From: Jatrophihabitantaceae bacterium
GTDB taxonomy: Bacteria; Actinomycetota; Actinomycetes; Mycobacteriales; Jatrophihabitantaceae
Reading direction: 5' to 3'
DNA: 24,000 nt
NCBI GenBank assembly: GCA_036506155.1
Contig: DASXSF010000014.1
Location: forward strand, 2,415-26,414
Part shown: positions 1-11,817 of the stretch, in pieces
How positions within the stretch are numbered: the stretch's first letter is position 1
Layout of the letters: the number at the start of each line of letters is the position of its first letter
Notes under the pieces: model-generated
Told to the model about the DNA's origin: nothing
Database searches by the model: none
The model's input: the letters and a program-made list of their open reading frames with translations, nothing else
Made by a program: the position numbers and the translations under genes

Positions 1-2118
1 CCGGCGGCACGGCTGCGGGTGAAGCTGGCGGACCGGTCACCGCGGCAGACGAATCCCTTATTGAGCCTGTTGTCGCAGCTTCTGGAACTTGCCGCAAGCC
101 GGGTCACCGCGACGCAGATCCTCGACCTAGTCGGGGCAGCGCCGGTGCGGCGGCGATTCGGCTTCGATGCCGACGACATCGAGCGATTGCGTGACTGGAC
201 GGTCGCCGCGAACGCTCGCTGGGGACTGGACGCCGAGCACCGTCGCGCGTACCAGCTGAGCAACATCACTCAGGGCACCTGGCGGTCGGCGCTCGACCGG
301 CTCCTACTCGGCGTCGCGATGGAAGAAGGCGTGACCTGGGTCGGCGACACGCTGCCGCTGGACGACGTCGACAGCTCCGACATCGACCTTCTGGGTCGCT
401 TCGCGGAACTCATCGACCGCGTCGACCGAGCCATCCGCGCGTTTAGCGAGAGGCACACCGCGTCGCAATGGGCGCGGCTGCTCGACGACGTGGTCCGCGG
501 TCTGGGCGAGGAAGACCAACCATGGCAGGGCATTCACCTGCAGCGTGAGCTCGGCGAGGTCGCCATGAACGCCGCGGACGCCGATGTCGAGCTCAGCCTC
601 GCGGATATCACCGAACTGCTGCGCGAGCGTCTCGCGGGCCGGCCGACCCGCGCCAGCTTCCGCACCGGCACGCTCACGGTCTGCACGCTCGTCCCGATGC
701 GATCGGTGCCGCACCGGGTGGTCTGCCTGCTCGGCATGGACGATGGCGCGTTTCCGCGGCAGAGCATCGCCGACGGCGACGACGTGCTGGCCCGCGAGCC
801 CCGAACCGGTGAACGCGATGTCCGCAGCGAGGATCGCCAGTTGTTCCTCGACGCGATCTGCTCGGCACAAGAACACTTGATCATCACCTATACCGGTACC
901 GATCCGCGCACGGGTGCCGACGTTCCGCCGTGCGTTCCGCTTAGCGAACTCCTCGACGCTGTCGACGCCACAGCCGTCGCGGCGGACGGCCGCTCCGCCC
1001 GCGATCATGTGATCGTCAGGCACCCGCTGCAACCATTTGATCCACGCAATTTCCTACCGGGCGAGCTGGGAACGCCTCGGCCGTTCTCGTTCGACCCGTC
1101 CGCGCTCGCCGGAGCTCGCGCCGCGGTGCAGCCGAGGACACAGCCGCCCCCGCTTGTTGCGGATCGACTGCCGAATGCTCCGGCCAGCGAAACCGTCAGC
1201 CTGGACGACCTCGTCCGGTTCTTCCAGCACCCGGTGCGTGGCTTCCTCCGTCAGCGTCTGGACATCAGCACCGCTGCCGAAGAAGAGGATCCGGCGGACG
1301 CTCTCACGGTGGAGCTCGACGGCCTTTCGGGGTGGGCGGTCGGTGACCGCGTACTGCAGCAGTGCCTGGCCGGCACGCCGCGACAGACAGCTGCCCGTCT
1401 GGAGCGCCTCCGTGGTGAGCTGCCGCCCGGGCCGCTGGGGACACGGGCCATGCGCGAGATCGGGAGCCGCGTCGACGCGCTGCTGCACGCGTCCGAACTC
1501 GAACGGGCGGACCCAGCAGAATCGGTCGACGTCGCCGTGCCGTTGAGTGACGGACGTACCGTGTCCGGAACGGTCGGCGGCGTCCGCGGCTCGACAATCC
1601 TGGCGGTCACGTACTCGACGCTTGCGCCCAAGCATCGGCTTACAGCCTGGCTGCGTTACCTGGCCATGGTGGCCGCAAGCGGTGACGCCGATTATCGAGC
1701 CGTCACAGTCGGCCGGCGCAGCGACGACGCGCGCCGCTCGATCCTGCACGGAGTCCAGCCGGACATCGCCCGGCGACTGCTCGAACTGCTCGTTCGCATC
1801 CGCGACGCCGGCCTGCGCGAGCCGCTGCCGCTCGTGCTCGAAACTTCCGAGGAGTACGCCACCCGGCGCTCACACGGCGCCATGATCGACGACGCGATCC
1901 CGGCTGCCCGCACGCGCTGGGAAGCCGACCGGTTCCGGCCCGAGCGCGACGATCCCGCGCACGTCCTCGTCTTCGGAGCGAACGCCCCGTTCGCGCGACT
2001 CAACGCTGGCCCGCCGCTCCCCGATGAATGTTTCCCGGACGAACCCACGAGGTTCGGGGCGCTCGCCCGGCTCGTTTGGCAACCGCTGGTCACGGCCGAG
2101 ATCGAGGTGCGGCCGTGA
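1..2118 (+). CDS. recC: Exodeoxyribonuclease V gamma subunit RecC, C-terminal ~705 aa (5' end outside window)
   Basis: Frame 1 is open from nt 1, so the GTG at 19 is not the true start. RecC-like sequence such as LTVCTLVPMRSVPHRVVCLLGMDDGAFPR. Stop TGA 2116-2118 overlaps the recB GTG (GTGA). Gene order is recC-recB-recD. Confidence 0.9.
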   Translation, partial: PAARLRVKLADRSPRQTNPLLSLLSQLLELAASRVTATQILDLVGAAPVRRRFGFDADDIERLRDWTVAANARWGLDAEHRRAYQLSNITQGTWRSALDRLLLGVAMEEGVTWVGDTLPLDDVDSSDIDLLGRFAELIDRVDRAIRAFSERHTASQWARLLDDVVRGLGEEDQPWQGIHLQRELGEVAMNAADADVELSLADITELLRERLAGRPTRASFRTGTLTVCTLVPMRSVPHRVVCLLGMDDGAFPRQSIADGDDVLAREPRTGERDVRSEDRQLFLDAICSAQEHLIITYTGTDPRTGADVPPCVPLSELLDAVDATAVAADGRSARDHVIVRHPLQPFDPRNFLPGELGTPRPFSFDPSALAGARAAVQPRTQPPPLVADRLPNAPASETVSLDDLVRFFQHPVRGFLRQRLDISTAAEEEDPADALTVELDGLSGWAVGDRVLQQCLAGTPRQTAARLERLRGELPPGPLGTRAMREIGSRVDALLHASELERADPAESVDVAVPLSDGRTVSGTVGGVRGSTILAVTYSTLAPKHRLTAWLRYLAMVAASGDADYRAVTVGRRSDDARRSILHGVQPDIARRLLELLVRIRDAGLREPLPLVLETSEEYATRRSHGAMIDDAIPAARTRWEADRFRPERDDPAHVLVFGANAPFARLNAGPPLPDECFPDEPTRFGALARLVWQPLVTAEIEVRP

Positions 2119-5100
2119 CCGACGCAAGGTTCGATCTCCTCGGTGAGCTGCCGCGCGGGACGACGGTCCTCGAGGCGAGCGCGGGAACGGGCAAGACGTT
2201 CACGATCGCCGGTCTGATGACCCGCTACGTCGCCGAGGGCGTGGTACCGCTCGACGAGTTGCTCGTCGTGACGTTCGGGCGCGCCGCGACCCAGGAGCTA
2301 CGCGACCGGGTCCGGGAGCGGCTGGTCACGGCTCGCGACGGGCTGCGTGACGTAGCGGCCGCGCGAGCCGGGGACGACCAACTGCTTCGCCACCTCGCAA
2401 CCGGCAGTGACAGCGACGTGGACAGCAGGCGGCAGCGGCTGGTCGCGGCGCTCGCCTCATTCGATGCCGCCACGGTCGTCACGACACACCAGTTCTGCCA
2501 GCAGATGCTCATCGGGCTGGGCACGGCGGGAGACGTCGACGCACACTCCGTGTTGGTGGAGAACCTCGACGACCTCGTCACCGAGGTCGTGCAGGACCTG
2601 TACCTGCGCAAGTGGGGACACGGCGATGTGCTCGATCCGCCGATGAACCTGAAGACCGCGCAGGAGCTGGCCCGGACCGTCGTGGAGGACGGGCAGGCCA
2701 TCCTCGTGCCCGATGTAGACGACGACAACCTGGCTGGGTTGCGGGTGCGGTTCGCCCACGCCGTCCGGGACGAAGTCGACCGTCGCAAACGCGCGCGCCG
2801 CGTGCTCGGCTTCGACGATCTGCTCACCCGCCTGCAGCAGACACTCGCTGACCCGCAGACCGGTCCAGCCGCCGTGGCACGACTACGCGGCCGCTATCGC
2901 ATTGTCCTGGTCGACGAGTTCCAGGACACCGATCCGGTGCAATGGGACGTCTTGCGCATGGCATTCCACGGCGCGGCGACGCTGGTGCTCGTCGGCGACC
3001 CCAAGCAGGCGATCTACGCCTTTCGCGGTGCCGATGTGCAGGCTTACCTTGCCGCCGCTGAGCTGGCCGATCACCGGGCGACGCTTGGCCAGAACTGGCG
3101 CAGCGACCCGGATCTGCTACGCGGCCTCGATGCGCTGTTCCGCGGCGCGGCGCTCGGCGACCCGCGGATCGTGGTGGGGCCGGTGTCCGCCGCGCATGCA
3201 GGTCGGTCGCTGGAGAGCGCCGAAGCGCCCGTGCGTGTCCGGCTCGTGCAGCGGGAGGGCAGTGAGACGCCCGGCGTCGACACCGCGCGACGCCTCGTGG
3301 TTCAGGACGTCGTGCGTGAAGTGGTCGGACTGCTGAACAGCCAAAAGACCCTGCACCCGCGGGAGAACACACCCGGCCGCCCGCTACGACCCGCGGACAT
3401 CGCCGTGATTGTCCGCACCAATGCGCAACTCGACCTGGTCCACGAGGCTTTGCTCGCGGCCCGCGTCCCGTCCGTGCGACGCACGACATCGAGCGTCTTC
3501 CGGACCTCTGCGGCAGGCGACTGGATCGTGCTGCTCGAAGCGCTGGAGCAGCCCCACCGCTCCGGCCGCCTGCGCCGACTGGCGGTATCACCGTTCGTGG
3601 GGTGGGATGCGGCGGCACTGGAGGGCAACGACGTCGACGAACTCGGGCTCCGGTTGCGGCACTGGCTGCGGATGTACGAGGAGCGCGGGGTTGCCGCTCT
3701 GCTCGAGACGATCACGCGCGACGAACGTCTGCCGGAAAGGCTGCTCGGTCAGGTCGACGGCGAGCGCCGGCTGACCGACCTTCGCCATGTGGCTGAGGCA
3801 CTGCATGCCGCATCGATGACCGGGCAGTTAGGCCTGACGGCTGGACTGGAATGGCTTCGACACCGTGTCGAGGAGGCCGAAGAGGACTCCTCGGTCGAGC
3901 GGGGGCGCCGACTCGACTCGGAGGCGGCCGCGGTGCAGGTCGTCACCGTCCATGCGAGCAAGGGTCTGGAGTTTCCGGTCGTCCTGGCGCCGTTCGGGTG
4001 GGACAAGCATGTGTTCGATCCGGAAATTCCGCTGTTCCACGAGGAGAGTTCCGGCCGGCGCGTCCGAAACGTGGGCGGGCGAAACAGCCTCGGCTTCCGG
4101 CATGACCAGGCCCGCCACCGGAACGAGGAATTCGGCGAGGATCTGCGACTGCTCTACGTCGCGCTCACCCGGGCGCAGTCGCAGGTGATCACCTGGTGGG
4201 CGCCTAGCACGCGAAACACCGTCTGTGCACCGCTGCACCGTCTGCTCTTCACCGAGTCACCGGCGAACGGAGTGCCGGAGCGCAGGCAAGTTCCGAGCGA
4301 CTCGAGGGCTCTCGCCGGAGCTTCGGCGCTTGCCGTGCGCGGCTGCCTGTCGGTGTCGGTGGCGTCCGGGGGCGCGCTGTCGTGGGAGCAGCCGCCGACG
4401 GTGGCGAGGGCGCTGTCGGCAGCGACCCTCGGCCGTCTGCTGGACACCTCGTGGCGGCGCACCTCGTACACCGCGCTGACCGCAGCAGTGCACGATGCCG
4501 CTCCGGCCGTCGCCTCGGAGCCAGAGGTTGATCAGAAGGACGACGAGCCGATAACGGCTATGCCGGCGGCCGCACCGGGCGATCTCCACGACGTGATATC
4601 GCCGATGGATGCGCTGCCTGGCGGCACCGCATTCGGGACGATCGTCCACGCCGTGCTGGAAAACGTCGACCCGACCTCCGCCGATCTTGCCGGCGCGGTC
4701 AGTGAGCAGGTGGCGGCGCAACTGTCCTGGTCAGGGTTGGCCGAACTGGATCATGACCAGCTGACTGCTGCCCTGCTTCCGGCGCTGCGTACACCCCTCG
4801 GAGACATCGTCGACGGTCGCACCCTCGCCGACATCGCGCCGCAAGATCGGCTCACCGAGCTCGACTTCGAGTTGCCGGTGCGGGGCGGTGATCGTCCGGA
4901 TGGGACGTCCCGGCTGGTCGAGCTTGCCGACCTGCTGCACGAGCATCTACGGACCGACGACCCGCTTGCGGGATACGCCGACCTGCTCAGCGATCCTGTC
5001 CTGAGCGAGGTGGTGTTCAAGGGCTATCTCGCTGGCAGCATCGATGCGGTCCTGCGTGTGGATGGCCGCTACGTCGTCGTCGACTACAAGACGAACCGGC

Positions 5101-5411
5101 TCGGCGTGCCGGATGCGCCACTGACCGCGTGGGACTACCGAGTCACCGCGATGGCCGAGGCAATGATCCAGGCGCACTACCCGCTGCAGGCGCTGCTGTA
5201 CGACGTGGCCTTGCACCGGTTCCTGCGTTGGCGACTTGCCGACTACGACCCGGCCCGGCACCTAGGCGGAGTGCTGTACCTGTTTCTGCGCGGGATGTGC
5301 GGCCCGGACATCCGGTTTGCCGACGGCACCATCCCCGGGGTGTTCGCCTGGCAGCCGCCGGCGACCCTGGTGACGGCAGCGTCCGACCTCCTCGCAGCGG
5401 GCCGACGATGA
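2115..5411 (+). CDS. recB: Exodeoxyribonuclease V beta subunit RecB (UvrD-like helicase + PD-(D/E)XK nuclease), ~1098 aa
   Basis: Start taken as GTG 2115 (VTDARFDLLGELPRGTTVLEASAGTGKTF) rather than the ORF-track ATG 2028, which lies inside recC. Walker A is ASAGTGKTF and motif II is VLVDEFQDTD. The C-terminal nuclease motif is GSIDAVLRVDGRYVVVDYKTN. Confidence 0.92.
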   Translation: MTDARFDLLGELPRGTTVLEASAGTGKTFTIAGLMTRYVAEGVVPLDELLVVTFGRAATQELRDRVRERLVTARDGLRDVAAARAGDDQLLRHLATGSDSDVDSRRQRLVAALASFDAATVVTTHQFCQQMLIGLGTAGDVDAHSVLVENLDDLVTEVVQDLYLRKWGHGDVLDPPMNLKTAQELARTVVEDGQAILVPDVDDDNLAGLRVRFAHAVRDEVDRRKRARRVLGFDDLLTRLQQTLADPQTGPAAVARLRGRYRIVLVDEFQDTDPVQWDVLRMAFHGAATLVLVGDPKQAIYAFRGADVQAYLAAAELADHRATLGQNWRSDPDLLRGLDALFRGAALGDPRIVVGPVSAAHAGRSLESAEAPVRVRLVQREGSETPGVDTARRLVVQDVVREVVGLLNSQKTLHPRENTPGRPLRPADIAVIVRTNAQLDLVHEALLAARVPSVRRTTSSVFRTSAAGDWIVLLEALEQPHRSGRLRRLAVSPFVGWDAAALEGNDVDELGLRLRHWLRMYEERGVAALLETITRDERLPERLLGQVDGERRLTDLRHVAEALHAASMTGQLGLTAGLEWLRHRVEEAEEDSSVERGRRLDSEAAAVQVVTVHASKGLEFPVVLAPFGWDKHVFDPEIPLFHEESSGRRVRNVGGRNSLGFRHDQARHRNEEFGEDLRLLYVALTRAQSQVITWWAPSTRNTVCAPLHRLLFTESPANGVPERRQVPSDSRALAGASALAVRGCLSVSVASGGALSWEQPPTVARALSAATLGRLLDTSWRRTSYTALTAAVHDAAPAVASEPEVDQKDDEPITAMPAAAPGDLHDVISPMDALPGGTAFGTIVHAVLENVDPTSADLAGAVSEQVAAQLSWSGLAELDHDQLTAALLPALRTPLGDIVDGRTLADIAPQDRLTELDFELPVRGGDRPDGTSRLVELADLLHEHLRTDDPLAGYADLLSDPVLSEVVFKGYLAGSIDAVLRVDGRYVVVDYKTNRLGVPDAPLTAWDYRVTAMAEAMIQAHYPLQALLYDVALHRFLRWRLADYDPARHLGGVLYLFLRGMCGPDIRFADGTIPGVFAWQPPATLVTAASDLLAAGRR

Positions 5412-7291
5412 CGTCCCTTCACGTCGCGCGAGCCGCCGGTCTGCTCGGTGTATTCGACCAGGCGGGCATCCTCGCCCCGGCCGATGTACACGTCGCAATG
5501 CGACTTGGCGCGCTGACCGGCGAGAACGACGACCGAGTGCTCCTCGCGATCGCGCTGACCGTTCGCAACACCAGGCATGGCTCGGTTGTCCTCGACCTCG
5601 CCGACGCAGCCACGACCGTCACAGCGGATGCGGACGATTCGGAACTGATCGAGAACGGCGAGCTGTCCTGGCCTGCTCCCGAGGAGTGGATCGCCGCCTG
5701 CGCAGCAAGTCCGGTTGTCGCTGACGCCCCGGGCGGTTCACCTGTGCGTCTCGTCGGCTCCCGTCTCTGGCTGGATCGCTACTGGCGCCAAGAGGCCCAG
5801 GTCGCCGAGGAGCTCTTGCATCGAAGCGCGCAGCGCCCGGCCGATCTCGACCTGGCCGTCCTCGGCTCCGATCTGGAGTCCCTGTTCAGCAGCACGTCGG
5901 ATGCCGACCAGCGCCTGGCCACCTGCGTCGCTGCATTGTCGCGGGTCAGCGTCATCGGCGGCGGACCGGGCACCGGCAAGACAACAACCATAGCGCGGCT
6001 GATCACAGCGCTTCGCCGGCAGCGCCCCGAGCTTCGCATCGCACTCGCCGCCCCTACCGGCAAGGCGGCAGCCCGGCTGGAGGAGGCGGTGCGATCGGCC
6101 AGCGGATCGCTTACCGCCCACGACCGCGGGCAGCTCGCGGGCATGTCCGCCTCCACGCTGCACCGCCTGCTCGGCCGGCGCCCGGGCGTCGCCAGCCGCT
6201 TCCGCCACGACCGGGAGAACCGACTGCCGTTCGACGTGGTGATCGTCGACGAGGCCTCGATGGTGTCGTTGACCCTGATGGCACGGCTTCTCGAGGCGCT
6301 TGCCCCGCCGGCTCGCCTCGTTCTCGTCGGCGACCCCGATCAACTCGCCTCCGTCGAAGCCGGTGCCGTGCTCGGTGATCTCGTGGAACACGACGACGTG
6401 GGCCGCCGCACCGAGTCCTTTCGCGCCATGCTCCAGGAAGCGATCCCTGGCCTGGACTGTCCCGTGCGCCAGAGCACACCCGCAGCGGCGCTTCGGGAAT
6501 CAGTAGCACTGCTGCGGACCGTGCACCGCTTCGGGGCCGGCGGACCGATTGCCCATCTGGCAGAGCACGTCCGGGCTGGCCGCGCCGATGAGACACTCGC
6601 CCTGTTGACCGATCCACCAGACGGCATAGCGTTCCACCTGACGCCCGACGACGAACCAGTGTCCGGTGCCGCACTGGAGGCCCTGCGCGGACAACTCGTG
6701 CACGAGAAGGCGGTCATCGACGCGGCCCGATCGGGAGACGTCGAGCATGCGCTCGATGCACTGGAACGTCATCGCATGCTCTGCGCACACCGCGCCGGGC
6801 CGCGCGGGGTGCGGCACTGGAGCGACGCCATCGAACGCTGGCTGGCCGCGGACGATCCATTGCTGACGCCGCGCCTCGACGGGCGATACGCCGGGCAGCC
6901 GCTGCTCGTGACGTCAAACGACTACGAGAACAGCCTTTACAACGGCGACACCGGCGTCGTCATAAACCAAGGCGATGAACTTGCCGCCGCCTTTCGCCGC
7001 GGCGGCGAGCCGGTCATCCTGCCGCTAGTGCGGTTGTCCGAGGTCCGCCCGATGCACGTGATAACCGTGCATCGCGCGCAAGGAAGCCAATTCGAGGAAG
7101 TCACCGTGCTACTCCCCCCAGCAACCTCGCCCCTCGCGACCCGCCAGACCTTCTACACCGCGATCACCCGCGCATCGAAGCTCGTCCGCCTGATCGGCTC
7201 GCAAGAGGCCGTCCTCGCCAGCGTCAACAGGCGAGCCGCAAGAGCGACCGGTCTGCGCGACCGCCTCGCAGGCCGCCTGGGAGCAGCTTAG
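5408..7291 (+). CDS. recD: Exodeoxyribonuclease V alpha subunit RecD (SF1 helicase), ~627 aa
   Basis: ATG 5408 overlaps the recB stop (ATGA, 5408-5411). N-terminus is MTSLHVARAAGLLGVFDQAG. Walker A is GGGPGTGKTTT, Walker B is VVIVDEASMV, and the late helicase motif is ITVHRAQGSQFEEV. The ORF-track start at 5129 lies inside recB. Confidence 0.92.
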   Translation: MTSLHVARAAGLLGVFDQAGILAPADVHVAMRLGALTGENDDRVLLAIALTVRNTRHGSVVLDLADAATTVTADADDSELIENGELSWPAPEEWIAACAASPVVADAPGGSPVRLVGSRLWLDRYWRQEAQVAEELLHRSAQRPADLDLAVLGSDLESLFSSTSDADQRLATCVAALSRVSVIGGGPGTGKTTTIARLITALRRQRPELRIALAAPTGKAAARLEEAVRSASGSLTAHDRGQLAGMSASTLHRLLGRRPGVASRFRHDRENRLPFDVVIVDEASMVSLTLMARLLEALAPPARLVLVGDPDQLASVEAGAVLGDLVEHDDVGRRTESFRAMLQEAIPGLDCPVRQSTPAAALRESVALLRTVHRFGAGGPIAHLAEHVRAGRADETLALLTDPPDGIAFHLTPDDEPVSGAALEALRGQLVHEKAVIDAARSGDVEHALDALERHRMLCAHRAGPRGVRHWSDAIERWLAADDPLLTPRLDGRYAGQPLLVTSNDYENSLYNGDTGVVINQGDELAAAFRRGGEPVILPLVRLSEVRPMHVITVHRAQGSQFEEVTVLLPPATSPLATRQTFYTAITRASKLVRLIGSQEAVLASVNRRAARATGLRDRLAGRLGAA

Positions 7292-7360
7292 GCCGACGTG
7301 CTGCCACGCGCGGCGGCTATCTAGTCGGGGAGGAGTGTCAACGCCTCGACGTGGCGTGGC

Positions 7361-9884
7361 CTACCGCCGTCGGGGGTCGGGGAAGCCGAGACGAACGTAG
7401 CCGGGCGCGCGCTTCGCTAACGATGAGGCGAGCACGCCGGTGCGGGCGTCGTGGTAGTCGTGGACCTCCGCCGTCTCCTTGCCTGGATGTGCTCGCAGGA
7501 TGCGCCCGACGTACTGCTCGAGCGGGGCTTTGAAGGCGATGGGTGCGGTGAGGAAGAGGGTGTCCAGCGCGGGGCAGTCGAAGCCTTCGCCGATGTAGGA
7601 GGCGGTTGCAACCGCCAGCAGCGGTTGTCCTTCGGACGGTTTGGTGAGCCTGGCTAGGGCGGCGGCTCGCGCTCTGGCGCCCATTCCGCCGCGCAGCAAG
7701 ACCGGATCGTGCCCGTGTTCGCGGAGCGCGGCGTCGAGGCGTTCGAGATGGGTAGTCCATCGGGTCAAGACGAGGCAGTTGCGGCCGCGGGCGAGTGCGT
7801 CGAGGACGTCGTCGACGATCTGCCGGTTGCGGTCCTCGTCCGCGGCAAGGTCGCGGTAGACGGCCGGCATGCCGCCCGGCGCGGACGGCTCGATGCTGCC
7901 GTTGTAGGTGAACGCGGTTGAGTGGACCTGCAAGACGGGGTGCGGTGGGGCGAGCTCGGTGGATCGGCTGGTCAGCGTGCCAGGTTCCGGGGGCCTCATC
8001 GTGTATCGGGCCGGCCCGAGCTGCAGCCCGATGAGATCGTCGAGTTGGTCGCGCCGGTACGGGGTCGCGGTCAGGCCGATCCAGCGTCGGGCCGGGATCT
8101 GCTTGACCGCACGCTCGAATGCTGCGGCGGGTACGTGGTGGCATTCGTCGACGACGACAAGCCCGTAGCCAGCCGTTAACGCGCGGATGTCGTCGTGGCG
8201 GACCAGCGATTGCAGCATGGCGACATCGACGGTGCCGCGGGTCTTCCTGCGTCCGCCGCCGAGCTGCCCGGCGTTGACTCCAAGGTGTTCGGCGAGCCGG
8301 CTGCGCCACTGGTCGGCCAGGGCTTTCCGGTCGACGAGCACCAAGGTTGTGGTTGCGTGCCGCGCGATGAGCGCGCAGGCGATGACCGTCTTTCCGGCAC
8401 CGGGGCGGTGCGACGAGAACGCCGAGGTCGTGTCCTGCCAGGGCGTCGACGGCGGCCTGCTGCGCGGGTTCGAGGATCGCCGCCGACTCGTACTCTCTGT
8501 CTGTTCCGGTGCTGCGTTCGTCGATGATCTCCAATCGGCTTCCTGCCTGCATTGCCACGTCGCCGAGCCGGTCGAGCAACCCGCGGGGTAGTACGAGGCT
8601 GCCGTCGAGGGTTTCGTCATAGTTGACGAGGAACCGGGGCACGTTCCATGTGGAGGCACGTAGGCGCTGCCGTTCGTAGAACACCGGGTTTGGCATCGAG
8701 GCGGCATGCTTGAGGGTCGCGGCCAGTGCCGGTGTGAGGTCTGCGCCGTGAACAGTGACGCCGGCGCCCAGGCGAACGTGCACGATGGGCGGGATCTGTG
8801 GGACGGTGCGGGTCGCGGTCGGCTCCGCGAGCCGGGTTACCTCGGCGCCGACGGCGACGCGGCCGAATCGCCCGACGAGCCGCTTTGCCTCTCGCGGGGT
8901 CAGGCGAGGCAGGCTGGACAGATACGCCCACTGGTCGGCGAACGGTTCCAGTGTGGCGACGTCGAGGAACACCGTCGCCCCGTGATCGCGGTGGTGGCGA
9001 TGCAGCGGCGCAGCGATCAGGTTGCCGATACTGCCGGTGGCAGGCAGCACGTCCTGCGACGGGAACAGCCGGTCATAGCTCGTCAGACTCATGTGGCCGC
9101 GGATGGACATTGCCTCGCGGAGTAGCCCGGTCCCGATCTGGCGGGCGGTGCTGGCCGGCACCGCTGTGCTGAAGAAGATCCACACATGCGCGCCCGTGCC
9201 CGAGCGAGAGACCTCCAACCCAGTGGCCACCCCCGCCGCGTGGGCTGCCTTCAGGTAGGCCAGGGCATCCAGCATCGCCGTCCGTCCGTCGAAGTCGGCG
9301 GCCAGCCACCAGCAGAGGTCCCCGTCCAGCAACGGGTACAGCCCGATCTCCGTCCCCCCCGACAGGTGCGCCACAACCACGTCGTCAGTCAGCGGCAGGT
9401 AGTCGCGGCGCGCGGCATCCTTGTGCCAACGGCCACGAACGGCGGGCATCCAGCCCGACCTGCCCGTGCGCCGGTTCTCCCACCGGACCGCGTACACGTC
9501 CGCGCGCGCGGCGAACAACGCTCGGTAGAAGGCGACCTTCTTCTCCGACGACGACCCGTTGTCCACCGAACCCGGCGGTGCGTCGAAGATGCCGGTCTGC
9601 GTCGGACCTGGCAGCCGCGCCTCACCGGGGCGCAGATCGAGCAGCCGCTGCAACCGAGCGTTCTCGGCCCGAAGTCGGTCCAATTCGGCGTACAGCGCAA
9701 CCGCGTCGCTCCCGTCGGCACCGCCTCGCGCATTCCACCCGCCGCGCACGTCGGCCACGCTATGCACCCGAGACCCATCGACGGCAGCGGCTCCGCGGCG
9801 AACCCGATCCTTTATGCGGCGGATCACCGATCCGGCGACTTGCCGCGAGGCAGGGACAGGACCACTCAGCGAATTTCCACCCAT
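7361..9884 (-). pseudogene. AEP (primase-polymerase) domain fused to DExH/XPB-like SF2 helicase, interrupted by a +1 nt frameshift at the G4 run 8402-8405 (about 840 aa if repaired)
   Basis: Protein-like sequence passes from the frame of ORF 7338..10034 to the frame of ORF 7361..8707 at ...GVLVAPP|[15 protein letters not shown] motifs are WWLAADFDG, SRSGTGAHVWIFF and SYDRLFPSQD. Helicase motifs are [23 protein letters not shown] and QYVGRILR. The total length 2524 nt equals 3n+1. The start is uncertain: ATG 9884 is the most upstream plausible one, and several in-frame GTGs lie downstream. Confidence 0.75.
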
Positions 9885-9897
9885 CCACAGTTCTCTA

Positions 9898-9934
9898 CAG
9901 CGGTACCTTGCCGTGAATCGGGCGTCCACCGCTG
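9898..9934. promoter_or_regulatory. Inverted repeat CAGCGGT-N23-ACCGCTG in the 59-bp divergent gap between the AEP-helicase and integrase genes
   Basis: Perfect 7-bp arms at 9898-9904 and 9928-9934 in the only intergenic space available for both promoters. The function is inferred, not demonstrated. Confidence 0.3.
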
Positions 9935-9943
9935 CCGGTCGGA

Positions 9944-11065
9944 ATGCACGGCCGGATCGACTTTCATCATGCCGGGTTGGGGCGAGTTCGGGCCCGTACA
10001 AGGGTCCGTGGCGCTGATGGCGTGCTGCGGGCAATCACGCGTTGGGGTGGCAGCGAAGCAGAGGCCGATGCAAGGTTAATGGTCGCGGTACGCGAGCAGG
10101 CCTGCCAGAACGACGGAGTACTGGCCGCCCACACCCGGCTCACCTCGGCCACGCAGGTCTGGCTGAGCGAGCTGGCGCGGTCCGAGCTGGCCGCCAGCAC
10201 TCGGCAGCTGTACCAGGCTGCGGCCCGCTGCTACCTGATTCCCACGCTCGGGTCGCTGTGCATCGGTGAGCTCACCGTCACGGTCATCGAACGCGCGCTG
10301 GCGTCGATCCGATCCCAGCATGGGCCGCAGCCCGCGCGGCCCGCACGCCGAGCCCTGTCGAGTCTGGGCCACTGCGCCGTGCGCCACGGTGCGCTGCCAG
10401 TCAACCCGGTGCGCGACACCCGCCCGATCGCCTGCCCGCGCAAACGGGTCCGAGCGCTCACCGTTGGCGAGGCCGCCGAGGTGCTGGCACGGCTGCGCGC
10501 CGATCCGACCGCCCTCCGGCTGGACCTGCCCGACTTCGTGGAGTTCATGCTGGGCACCGGCGTGCGCATCGGCGAAGCTTGCGCAATCCGTGAAGCAGTT
10601 CTGGACCTCAAGGCCGGCACCGTGCACATCAACGCCACCGTGGTCCGCGTCGACGGCGTCGGGCTGGAGATCCAGCCACGGACCAAGACCGCCCGATCCG
10701 AACGGATCTTGCACTTGCCGCCACATCTCCTGCGTATGCTCAGGCGGCGCCCGCTTAACGGCCACCCGCCAGGACCGGCTGGGGTCAACTTCACCTCCCC
10801 CGGGCTGATCCGCGACCCGTCCAACACCCAGGCCGACCTGCGCCAGGCCCTTGACCGTGGCGGCTACCCGTGGGTGAGCAGCGACGTCTTCCGCAAGACC
10901 GTCGCATCTCGCCTCGACGACGAGGGCTACGGCATCCGCCATATCGCCAACCAGCTCGGGCACAGCCGACCGTCAACCACGATGGACTACTACCTCGGCC
11001 GGCGTGCGCTCACCACGATCAACTTCTCCCGCGCGCTCGAGCCGCTCTTAGCCGCGAGTGAGTAA
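9944..11065 (+). CDS. int: Tyrosine recombinase / phage-type site-specific integrase (373 aa from ATG 9944)
   Basis: Box I Arg in LGTGVRIGEACAI. The C-terminal catalytic region is VSSDVFRKTVASRL...IANQLGHSRPSTTMDYYLGR (R, H, Y present). The N-terminal RVRGADGVLRAITRWGGSEAEADARL resembles the arm-binding domain of actinobacterial integrases. The exact start is uncertain. Confidence 0.85.
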   Translation: MHGRIDFHHAGLGRVRARTRVRGADGVLRAITRWGGSEAEADARLMVAVREQACQNDGVLAAHTRLTSATQVWLSELARSELAASTRQLYQAAARCYLIPTLGSLCIGELTVTVIERALASIRSQHGPQPARPARRALSSLGHCAVRHGALPVNPVRDTRPIACPRKRVRALTVGEAAEVLARLRADPTALRLDLPDFVEFMLGTGVRIGEACAIREAVLDLKAGTVHINATVVRVDGVGLEIQPRTKTARSERILHLPPHLLRMLRRRPLNGHPPGPAGVNFTSPGLIRDPSNTQADLRQALDRGGYPWVSSDVFRKTVASRLDDEGYGIRHIANQLGHSRPSTTMDYYLGRRALTTINFSRALEPLLAASE

Positions 11066-11066
11066 G

Positions 11067-11099
11067 TGGTTCGTTTATGGTTCGTTTCTGGTTCGCACC
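11067..11099. repeat. Three tandem 11-bp repeats TGGTTCGTTTA / TGGTTCGTTTC / TGGTTCGCACC
   Basis: Read directly. The array begins 2 nt after the integrase stop (TAA 11063-11065) and ends 29 nt before the tRNA-derived segment. The period is 11 bp, one helical turn. Confidence 0.7.
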
Positions 11100-11127
11100 C
11101 ACGGGCGCGGACTAGAATCCCCTTATA

Positions 11128-11170
11128 TGGTGGGCCCCGAGGGACTCGAACCCTCAACCTACGGGTCGAT
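11128..11170 (-). other. Orphan tRNA 3' half (variable arm + T arm + acceptor 3' strand + encoded CCA): att-site remnant, not a functional tRNA
   Basis: The minus strand reads ATCGACCCGTAGGTT-GAGGG-TTCGAGT-CCCTC-GGGGCCC-A-CCA, a canonical T stem-loop with a 7-nt acceptor strand, discriminator A and CCA. A stem-forming extra arm (GACC/GGTT) suggests a type II, Leu-like tRNA. No complementary GGGCCCC 5' acceptor strand and no anticodon stem-loop can be folded in the next 100 nt. Confidence 0.7.
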
Positions 11171-11259
11171 CTTCTGCCTTCGCCGCGAGCATCTTTGGCC
11201 TATTTTACTTGGGTATTCGCGTCGCCAGCGGCCCCGAATCACTCTGGCAGGCGGCATTT

Positions 11260-11280
11260 CATGTCACGTTCCATGTCACG
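11260..11280. repeat. Direct repeat CATGTCACG x2 (12-bp spacing), each preceded by TTC
   Basis: tTTCATGTCACGtTCCATGTCACG read directly in a non-coding, lower-GC stretch. Function unknown. Confidence 0.4.
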
Positions 11281-11566
11281 CGAGCTGCACCGGGTAAGCC
11301 ATCGACACCACAGCGTCTGGCGCTCGGCGCGGGCTCGTCGCTGGTCGTCGAAATCATCTCCGGTTCGACATGGAATCCGCAGACTGTCAGTGTCGGTCGC
11401 ACCAGTGGGTGAGACCTGCCCGCTGGGCGCAGCGACGCTGCCGTCTGCGATGTCGCGGGCAGACTCTGCCAGGCCAGTAGAGCCAGAGCCGGCGGTGACC
11501 TCAATGCCGATCACGGTCGGTAGGACGCCGTGCCATGCGTTGGTGGTACCGCATGTTCTCGTTCTC

Positions 11567-11584
11567 CGCGCAGCGAACTGCGCG
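11567..11584 (+). terminator. GC hairpin CGCGCAG-CGAA-CTGCGCG followed by CTGTTGATT (intrinsic-terminator-like)
   Basis: Perfect 7-bp stem, tetraloop and a moderately T-rich tail on the plus strand. No intact upstream plus-strand gene other than int, 500 bp away. Confidence 0.3.
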
Positions 11585-11817
11585 CTGTTGATTCGCTGCC
11601 GGCGGAGCGGCGCTACGTAGGAACCGGACGGGGGAGGGTGGCCACCATGGGGCCACCCTTCGCGGTGGCGGCGACGCGTGATGTGTGTGAGCGCGGAAAC
11701 TAGGCATAACCCGGCCGCCGCAGGGCGCTGGTCCGCCGCCCGCAAGGGGATCCTCTGTGCGAGAGTCCGGATTCGAATGAAGGCGACCAAGGCTCCAGCG
11801 TTGCGCCTCTGTCGTGA

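Follow-up and report, generated by a model that had tools for sequence, protein, structure and literature searches.

The block at positions 7292-11170 of the DNA shown above raises the question of what kind of element would consist of just two genes, an AEP/SF2-helicase gene on the minus strand and a tyrosine integrase gene (int1) on the plus strand, lodged between recD and a piece of a tRNA. The window, meaning the whole stretch of 24,000 nucleotides (nt) that was analyzed, covers positions 2415-26414 of contig C14 (DASXSF010000014.1) from a Jatrophihabitantaceae bacterium and has a G+C content of about 69%. Coordinates are window positions unless a contig or locus is named. Genomes and loci used for comparison carry G and L numbers, respectively: G000 is the source genome, L006 is the G006 locus and L145 is the G007:C41 locus. 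A preliminary description had proposed a decayed integrative element, resembling either an actinomycete integrative and conjugative element (AICE) or a satellite, or else a minimal mobile unit carrying an AEP-helicase as cargo. The block is very probably all that remains of a mini integrative island of some 5.5 kb, now inactive, which sits in a tandem array at tRNA-Lys(UUU) and carries a gene of the IEE family, and the decay proposed earlier is borne out by five lesions and by intact relatives.

A tandem array at tRNA-Lys(UUU)

On its integrase side, the block ends with an attachment (att) copy at 11114-11166 (minus strand), in which positions 11128-11166 make up the CCA end and the 3' 36 nt of a tRNA. 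Assignment of this 39-nt piece to a Leu-like tRNA was rejected because it matches the 3' end of tRNA-Lys(UUU) exactly. ARAGORN calls no tRNA gene in the window. Directly past the integrase stop codon are three 11-bp direct repeats of the GGTTCGTTT type (11067-11099, plus strand; TRF reports 2.6 copies at 11067-11095).

When the whole assembly was searched with 11100-11200 as the query, two further matches were found. One is a second core at C14:34634-34718, about 21 kb rightward and about 250 bp from the end of the contig. The other, at the start of contig C149, belongs to an intact tRNA-Lys(UUU) gene (C149:290-363), the sole such gene in the genome. A genome search for the full tRNA and a second copy of the piece, as suggested in the preliminary description, has therefore produced both. 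In all three modules, the integrase C-terminus and its stop codon are followed by GGTTCGTTT-type repeats, a spacer of about 25 nt and the tRNA 3' end up to ...CCTACGG. Only the module on C149 joins an intact tRNA; both copies on C14 leave the tRNA sequence past ...CCTACGG. This threefold occurrence in the genome supports the earlier identification of the tRNA piece and the 11-bp repeats as an att region. The missing tRNA 5' half had been counted as a sign of decay, but since tandem insertion leaves an att copy behind, the 3' piece is simply the normal duplicate between neighboring islands, the intact tRNA-Lys being on C149.

The att copy is identical to the intact tRNA locus over 11114-11166 except at 11128, which is G in the window and C in the intact locus, and the identity ends at ...CCTACGG. 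The C at this position leaves the intact tRNA-Lys gene without an encoded CCA. Both displaced cores encode CCA after the discriminator base (11128-11130 and C14:34641-34643), and the intact gene is followed by CGA, which suggests that the last element to arrive supplied its present 3' end and that CCA has to be added to it.

The stretches just to the right of the first and second cores are 81% identical over 166 nt, which indicates that an element starts at each core. The island that follows the block, E2, extends from 11167 to about 32220 (to C14:34643), a length of about 21 kb, and is bounded by two tRNA-Lys core copies. Its left (P) arm and non-coding start, at 11167-11817 (plus strand) and thus outside the block, contain two CATGTCAC repeats at 11260-11267 and 11272-11279. 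Six elements are built alike at their far ends, with a core, about 100 nt and then two short direct repeats of the CATGTCAC or ATTGACA type. The integrase at the end of E2, int2 (window-equivalent 30912-32159), is 58% identical to int1. A third island, E3, falls in an unassembled gap, and the end of its integrase, on C149, has 82% identity to int1. The elements stand in series with single att copies between them, and each has its own integrase beside a core. The tRNA gene whose 3' end they use remains intact, as seen on C149, where it lies beside a homologous integrase end. Judged from the sequence, the block (E1) is the tRNA-distal unit of a three-island tandem array, and the order would be recD, E1 (helicase, int1), core, E2, core, E3, tRNA-Lys, chromosome. 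The preliminary description had foreseen that an intact tRNA with direct repeats might define quite different element boundaries. Such repeats do define two more islands rightward, and the right boundary of the block itself is unchanged.

The GGTTCGTTT-type repeats are nearly identical in E1, E3, G006, G002 and G007, with divergent versions in E2 and G096. More distant integrase relatives, which target tRNA-Lys(CUU), have other short tandem repeats in the same position after the stop codon. A changed sequence in a kept position fits arm-type binding sites, and the 11-bp repeats are probably putative sites of this kind (P').

Intact relatives and the decay of the block

The clearest view of what the block once was comes from its relatives. 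Two metagenome contigs, L151 and L152, carry fully intact units of 5.54 kb that are 81% identical to the window block, in the order tRNA-Lys, integrase, 801-aa helicase, vapB, vapC, a 74-aa open reading frame (ORF) and, lastly, an exact 43-nt copy of the tRNA end. In L150, a unit of 5.6 kb is bounded by two cores, with a further integrase after it, and in G007, the unit likewise lies between two core copies. Repeats at both ends are thus present in L151 and L152 (43 nt, exact), L150 and G007, and it is to these four that the earlier notion of a minimal mobile unit with the AEP-helicase as cargo applies well. In the same-genus genome G006, tRNA-Lys(UUU) is followed by an integrase (82% amino acid identity, with an ATG start and the His of the HxxR motif), an intact 798-aa helicase and vapBC. 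G002 is more decayed and displaced from the tRNA: fragments of the AEP gene and integrase are followed by a core copy, another island, an integrase and the tRNA. The G007 copy also has about 830 bp, including a duplicated N-terminal piece of the integrase, between helicase and integrase (L145 9994-10821), and both of its genes are frameshifted in the assembled sequence. No circular contigs were found when terminal overlaps were sought in four short contigs with close homologues.

The G006 unit is 86.5% identical at the nucleotide level to window 11164-7351, whereas identity drops to 73-75% in the chromosomal genes next to the tRNA. At synonymous sites, the block has diverged by 0.29-0.46 versus 0.66-1.33 for five flanking genes, and the lower divergence of the block suggests transfer between lineages after their split. 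The ratio of non-synonymous to synonymous divergence (dN/dS) is 0.14-0.22 for the block, with 0.14-0.15 cited for the helicase, which points to purifying selection during most of that time and a long functional past.

Against this background, the block carries five marks of decay: the helicase is frameshifted at Walker A, the integrase has Asp314 in its HxxR motif, the integrase ATG is now ATC, vapBC is deleted, and the small ORFs, far arm and far core are missing. The first two had been recognized in the preliminary description and are confirmed by alignment; the vapBC deletion, the loss of the far arm and att and the loss of the integrase start codon are additions to it.

The integrase gene int1 (9944-11065, plus strand; PF00589, 2.3e-13; phrog_1, 1.3e-41) is classed as tRNA-Lys(UUU)-specific, and its relatives adjoin tRNA-Lys genes. 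It retains the box I Arg (GVRIGEA), the Arg of HxxR, LGHS and the Tyr in MDYY, but the His of HxxR is replaced by Asp314 (GAC, 10883-10885). The equivalent position is His in int2, int3 and the G006 and G002 copies, as well as in the solved integrase 3nkh. The full catalytic set is therefore incomplete in int1 and complete in the copies from G006, G002 and L151 and in int2 and int3. At 9917-9919 (plus strand), where relatives have the ATG start codon and L151 reads MGRPPLPVGMHGRIDF, the window has ATC, and the ORF now begins nine codons after the ancestral ATG, at 9944. According to this alignment, the 59-bp gap described between the two divergent genes is an artefact of the lost start codon. 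A 7-bp inverted repeat noted in that gap does exist. However, it carries no meaning: the ancestral coding sequence of the integrase includes one of its arms, the closest relative does not share the repeat, and its fold has a z-score of -0.5 versus shuffles.

The helicase gene (9884->7361, minus strand) is a pseudogene that encodes an IEE-family AEP polymerase joined to an SF2 (XPB-like) helicase. Its N-terminal part matches the Pfam family AEP-TOTE (PF22548; 1.4e-74, 251 bits) and its second part the ResIII (1.4e-21), DEAD and Helicase_C domains. The true start is uncertain, as the first 40-60 codons or so are not conserved. From 9884, the ORF stays in one frame as far as about 8400, beyond which a different frame takes over until 7361. 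The motifs ADFDG (DFD), GAHVW, SYD, GAGKT, DECH, TATP and GRILR are all encoded. The frames meet at CCGCCCCGG, where a run of four C (8402-8405, minus strand) has one base more than the three found in in-frame relatives and splits Walker A from the upstream frame; when the extra C is removed, the frame reads GAGKT. Four of five aligned homologues, including a second partial copy from the same genome, read CCG-CCnGG, in frame as ...APPGAGKT..., and the G007 copy has its own 1-nt gap a few bases downstream of the frameshift site. The extra base is seen in none of the five, which argues against a conserved recoding site. The +1 frameshift thus separates the AEP part from Walker A onward in the window copy, and the two domains form one polypeptide in the orthologues of G006, L150 and L151. 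The window helicase is 88-92% identical in amino acid sequence to the intact G006 orthologue.

The second partial copy just mentioned is a truncated IEE-like gene on another contig of the source genome (C21:18219-19550; L147 6220-7551) that covers residues ~269-706, is 73-79% identical to the window copy at the amino acid level and keeps its reading frame through the P-loop. Within 14 kb of it, neither an int1-type integrase nor a tRNA-Lys core was found.

The left end of the block adjoins recD, which is intact (TIGR01447, 2.6e-143) and ends at 7291. Homology to the closest recD (G011, 87% at the nucleotide level) ends at the stop codon, and homology to the G006 and G007 elements begins at about 7318. 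The 26 nt between the recD stop and the first base common to related elements (7292-7317, unstranded) are likely the endpoint of a deletion or rearrangement in which the far end of the element was lost. Next comes a 42-bp remnant of the 3' end of vapC, which encodes a PIN toxin (7318-7359, minus strand). It matches L006 11112-11153 (83%) and L145 6683-6721 (87%), both of which are the ends of 140-aa PIN ORFs. In this way, 42 bp of what had been described as a 70-bp spacer at recD turn out to be the tail of vapC. vapB and vapC come after the helicase in L006, L145, L150, L151 and L152, and a GTGGCG microhomology is found at the edges of the vapBC deletion in the window. No left att copy or arm was found near recD by fuzzy search and local alignment, the best local score being 7 compared to a mean of 8.7 for random windows, which agrees with the earlier remark that no clear second att copy was present there. 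The tRNA 3'-end repeat is thus present on the integrase side only, and with a single att, the E1 unit could not excise.

The history that would account for these features starts from an intact island with a tyrosine integrase, an IEE-family AEP-polymerase/SF2-helicase, vapBC and one or two small ORFs. Its integrase would recombine the att of the element with the 3' end of the tRNA-Lys(UUU) gene. The core of this att would be the last ~37-45 nt of the tRNA, flanked toward the integrase by the three GGTTCGTTT repeats and, some 100 nt away in the opposite direction, by two repeats of the CATGTCAC type. Integration would rebuild the tRNA and leave a copy of the core at the far end. E2 and E3 would have used the same site later, thereby displacing E1. 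E1 would then have lost its far arm, far core, small ORFs and vapBC in a deletion reaching to 26 nt from the recD stop, as well as its integrase start codon and catalytic His, and its helicase would have acquired the +1 frameshift.

Several points weigh against this account. The gap between C14 and C149 is unassembled, and a search for contig-end overlaps yielded no linking contig, so E3 and the link to the tRNA follow from the logic of the sequence. An incoming island may use any core copy, which makes the arrival of E1 before the others likely rather than proven. The left end lacks an att and an arm, and the deletion there is accordingly a presumed one. The closest recD, in G011, is followed by unrelated DNA on a short contig. 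The change from His to Asp need not abolish all integrase activity. Lastly, the frameshift is read from the assembled sequence.

The last point leads to a different explanation, in which the frameshift reflects a mistake in assembly or base calling, or is overcome by +1 slippage of the ribosome, so that the helicase is functional cargo in an island locked in place by damage to its integrase. All catalytic motifs are intact besides the extra C, the helicase has the low dN/dS given above, and 65-68 of 80 sampled homologues are intact. CCC-C is a known slippery context for +1 slippage of tRNA-Pro. The frameshift site reads CCC-C on the coding strand, at a site that is not conserved in relatives, and some full-length helicase might still be made from it. 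On the other hand, four other independent lesions occur within the same 3.9 kb, which fits general decay, and the extra base is absent from all five aligned homologues. A four-base run would also be an unlikely site for an error in a short-read-type assembly of 157 contigs. Functional cargo is therefore an unlikely explanation, and a decayed island accounts for the lesions better.

Comparison with relatives, as proposed in the preliminary description, thus revealed longer, intact versions of the element (L151, L152 and G006). It did not reveal an empty site: recD beside tRNA-Lys was sought in 40 relatives, and none was demonstrated. Within this genus, what follows tRNA-Lys is hypervariable, and recD has a patchy distribution and never adjoins tRNA-Lys in the genomes seen.

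The IEE-like gene and its family

Whole-protein homology ties the helicase gene to IEE, the IS-excision enhancer known from E. coli O157:H7 and 786 aa in length (Kusumoto et al. 2011, as cited in PMC9943667). IEE promotes the transposase-dependent excision of IS3, IS1 and IS30 family elements, is a Mn-dependent polymerase capable of microhomology end joining, and requires its helicase-like domain for activity (PMC9943667). The G006 orthologue is collinear over its full length with the 786-aa protein of strain EDL933 (O157:H7, L155:5983-8343), with 36% identity and an E-value of 4e-151 (residues 23-792 versus 7-775). The EDL933 protein has Y128, D142, D144, S171, Q175, G176, H178 and D216 in the positions given in PMC9943667, and D142, D144, S171, G176, H178 and D216 align to identical residues in the G006 orthologue. 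In the window copy, ADFDG, GAHVW and SYD align with D142/D144, H178 and D216, respectively, so that AEP motifs A (hDhD), B (sxH) and C (hD) are all represented.

As IEE is its closest studied relative, the gene, called a primase-helicase in the preliminary description, is best read as coding for an IEE-family polymerase/end-joining enzyme and not a replication primase. By analogy, the protein would be a cargo enzyme that polymerizes and joins DNA ends during excision of mobile elements, rather than the replicase of the island.

The family is large, with at least 3953 proteins at E-values of 1e-20 or below. Eighty loci encoding homologues of the AEP part were sampled. An int1-type integrase lies beside the AEP gene in only one of them, L006, and such integrases accompany the helicase only in the source genus and close metagenomic relatives. 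Some tyrosine recombinase is found within 6 kb in 20 of the 80. In at least 20 of the 80, the helicase is located between exact direct repeats of 22-62 nt that span 3.6-10 kb, and these repeats are mostly tRNA 3' ends (Pro, Tyr, Arg, Lys and others). Full-length homologues occur on 97 plasmid records, mostly large ones (tens of kb to ~1 Mb among the records shown).

Seven loci (L021, L025, L038, L049, L050, L012 and L071) hold units of 3.6-4.6 kb between exact direct repeats of 33-48 nt, derived from tRNA-Pro, tRNA-Arg and others. No recombinase was detected in these seven units, which contain only the IEE-like gene and a toxin-antitoxin pair or small ORFs. Larger ORFs of integrase-less units were considered as hidden recombinases and rejected, as they proved to be IS110/DDE transposases, HTH/M78, PRiA4_ORF3 or Helicase_C_3 proteins or had no match. 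In 18 loci, mostly from Pseudonocardiales, a 388-aa ORF (c1), often preceded by one of 123 aa (c6), is found directly beside the IEE-like gene, for example at L064:6458-7992 (plus strand) and L011:10363-11517 (minus strand). Neither c1 nor c6 has a Pfam, NCBIfam, PHROG or PADLOC match. On plasmid pDSHI03 of Dinoroseobacter shibae (L153; NC_009957.1 64327-80777), a full-length homologue with 40% identity has a strawberry-notch family gene on one side and, on the other, three tyrosine recombinase genes in a row. This recombinase trio shows that the link to site-specific recombinases recurs in Alphaproteobacteria.

These small units suggest another possibility, that the IEE-like gene itself defines tRNA-flanked mini-elements of 3.6-10 kb in Actinomycetota, many of them integrase-less, and aids their movement, or that such units borrow integrases of the E2 and E3 type. 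Polymerase activity and microhomology end joining could help a unit to move or be copied between long direct repeats. Were integrases borrowed in this way, the array in the window would be a community of helpers and hitchhikers instead of a graveyard. This idea is an improbable one at present.

A little less probable again is that the units are a family of self-replicating, satellite- or plasmid-like elements, with the AEP-helicase as initiator and vapBC as stabilizer, and that the window copy is a dead satellite. The AEP-helicase is indeed the one constant gene of many small att-flanked units, several of which consist of the helicase and a toxin-antitoxin pair alone, without an integrase, and AEP-helicase proteins are known as replicases of mobile elements (PMC11724360; PMC2440964). 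However, IEE, the full-length collinear relative, is polymerase/end-joining cargo on an E. coli island and not a replicase (PMC9943667). A search of 50,697 phage records gave no full-length homologue, and the large plasmids that carry homologues should have replication systems of their own. The units contain no capsid, packaging, AlpA or Xis gene that could be found, and the four contigs checked were not circular. The satellite of the preliminary description is thus not supported, and an integrase-borne island with an IEE-family cargo gene is the better account.

Conflict systems of the TOTE type (TPR, OB, TBP, Effector; Aravind, Iyer et al. 2022, as cited in bioRxiv 10.1101/2025.09.15.676423) share with the block an AEP domain of the Pfam family named after them. 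That the block is such a system, or another dedicated anti-phage system beside an integrase, is very unlikely: the 251-bit AEP-TOTE match, the similar names that NCBI gives to homologues, a match to the PADLOC model for CRISPR-associated PrimPol (4e-73) and the frequent toxin-antitoxin neighbors are outweighed by the homology of the whole protein to IEE, by the lack of database matches for c1 and c6, and by the absence of any TPR-OB or TBP gene from the block, its intact relatives and the 80 sampled loci, which leaves only the "effector" domain in common.

Neighboring DNA and known systems

E2 carries genes for an OmdA protein, a YjjI-type glycyl-radical enzyme and its activase, PEBP, endonuclease V and RibD_C, among others, together with a SWIM-DUF5691-MoxR-DUF5682-VWA operon, DUF498, a radical SAM gene and an IS110 fragment. 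This cargo looks chromosomal. A 419-aa ORF divergent from int2 (L004:5805-7064, minus strand) has no family match. On the other side of the block, DNA like the recD region (2028-7291) is found in few genomes of the genus (G011, 87%; G002, ~70%) and was not found in the 98%-complete G006; recBCD itself may sit in a variable region. Contigs C14 and C94 share 97.7% identity over their first 300 bases, which indicates a repeat at the contig ends, upstream of recBCD. A promoter and terminator scan of 7200-11400 gave nothing exceeding chance.

The analysis provides a clean annotation of the locus as a three-island array at tRNA-Lys(UUU) with a dead first unit and an IEE-family pseudogene, in which the "orphan tRNA half" is identified. 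It also links a studied E. coli enzyme to a very large actinobacterial family hitherto labelled only "DEAD/DEAH helicase" or "TOTE AEP protein" and shows that the IEE-like gene travels on unusually small tRNA-integrating units with toxin-antitoxin pairs. A testable model for these abundant genes is that they handle the DNA ends of mobile elements, and the intact 5.5-kb units offer material for such tests.

Among known systems, AICEs are 9-24 kb in size and have an FtsK/SpoIIIE-type transfer gene, a replication gene and an excisionase (PMC2440964). The AICE-like reading of the block was therefore rejected: the block has two genes only, and the intact 5.5-kb relatives add vapBC and small ORFs without such domains. 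There are no FtsK-type Tra, Rep, Xis or Nudix genes, and the first unit is far smaller than an AICE.

Phage-inducible chromosomal islands (PICIs), phage-inducible chromosomal minimalist islands (PICMIs) and P4-like elements, all minimal phage satellites with a core of integrase and primase-replicase, resemble the block in being small and tRNA-integrated, with an integrase divergent from a primase-like or helicase gene. Unlike them, the block and its intact relatives have no AlpA or other regulator, no capsid-size redirection, no small terminase or other packaging gene, and no Psu, Sid or Delta that could be found, and a phage satellite was rejected on these grounds. The helicase is also of the SF2 XPB-like type instead of SF3 or SF4, its fusion to the AEP domain has no full-length relatives among the phage records searched, and no helper is known.

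The likeness to IEE is closer. Both proteins have an N-terminal Z1568-like AEP domain and a C-terminal SF2 helicase and are of the same size, and the metal-binding Asp residues, the motif B His, the context of the Walker A Lys, DExH and motif VI are conserved. Both are carried on integrated islands and spread horizontally. The differences are the actinobacterial host, the identity of only 36%, the frameshift in the window copy and the carrier: a 5.5-kb island at tRNA-Lys that includes vapBC, where IEE has a large E. coli island.

The arrangement of the islands also has precedents. ICESt1-family cis-mobilizable elements are one case of tandem accretion. Another is the tandem insertion of AICESav3728 and AICESav3708 at one tRNA-Arg of Streptomyces avermitilis, which leaves a 44-bp att between the elements (PMC2440964). 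In such arrays, as in the window, successive insertions occur at the rebuilt 3' end of the tRNA with an att of about 40-45 nt between units, and the older unit loses genes and becomes dependent or dead. There is nothing here to surprise specialists in mobile elements: the block is of ordinary, known kinds, at once a tRNA-site island in a tandem array and a carrier of an IEE-family gene.

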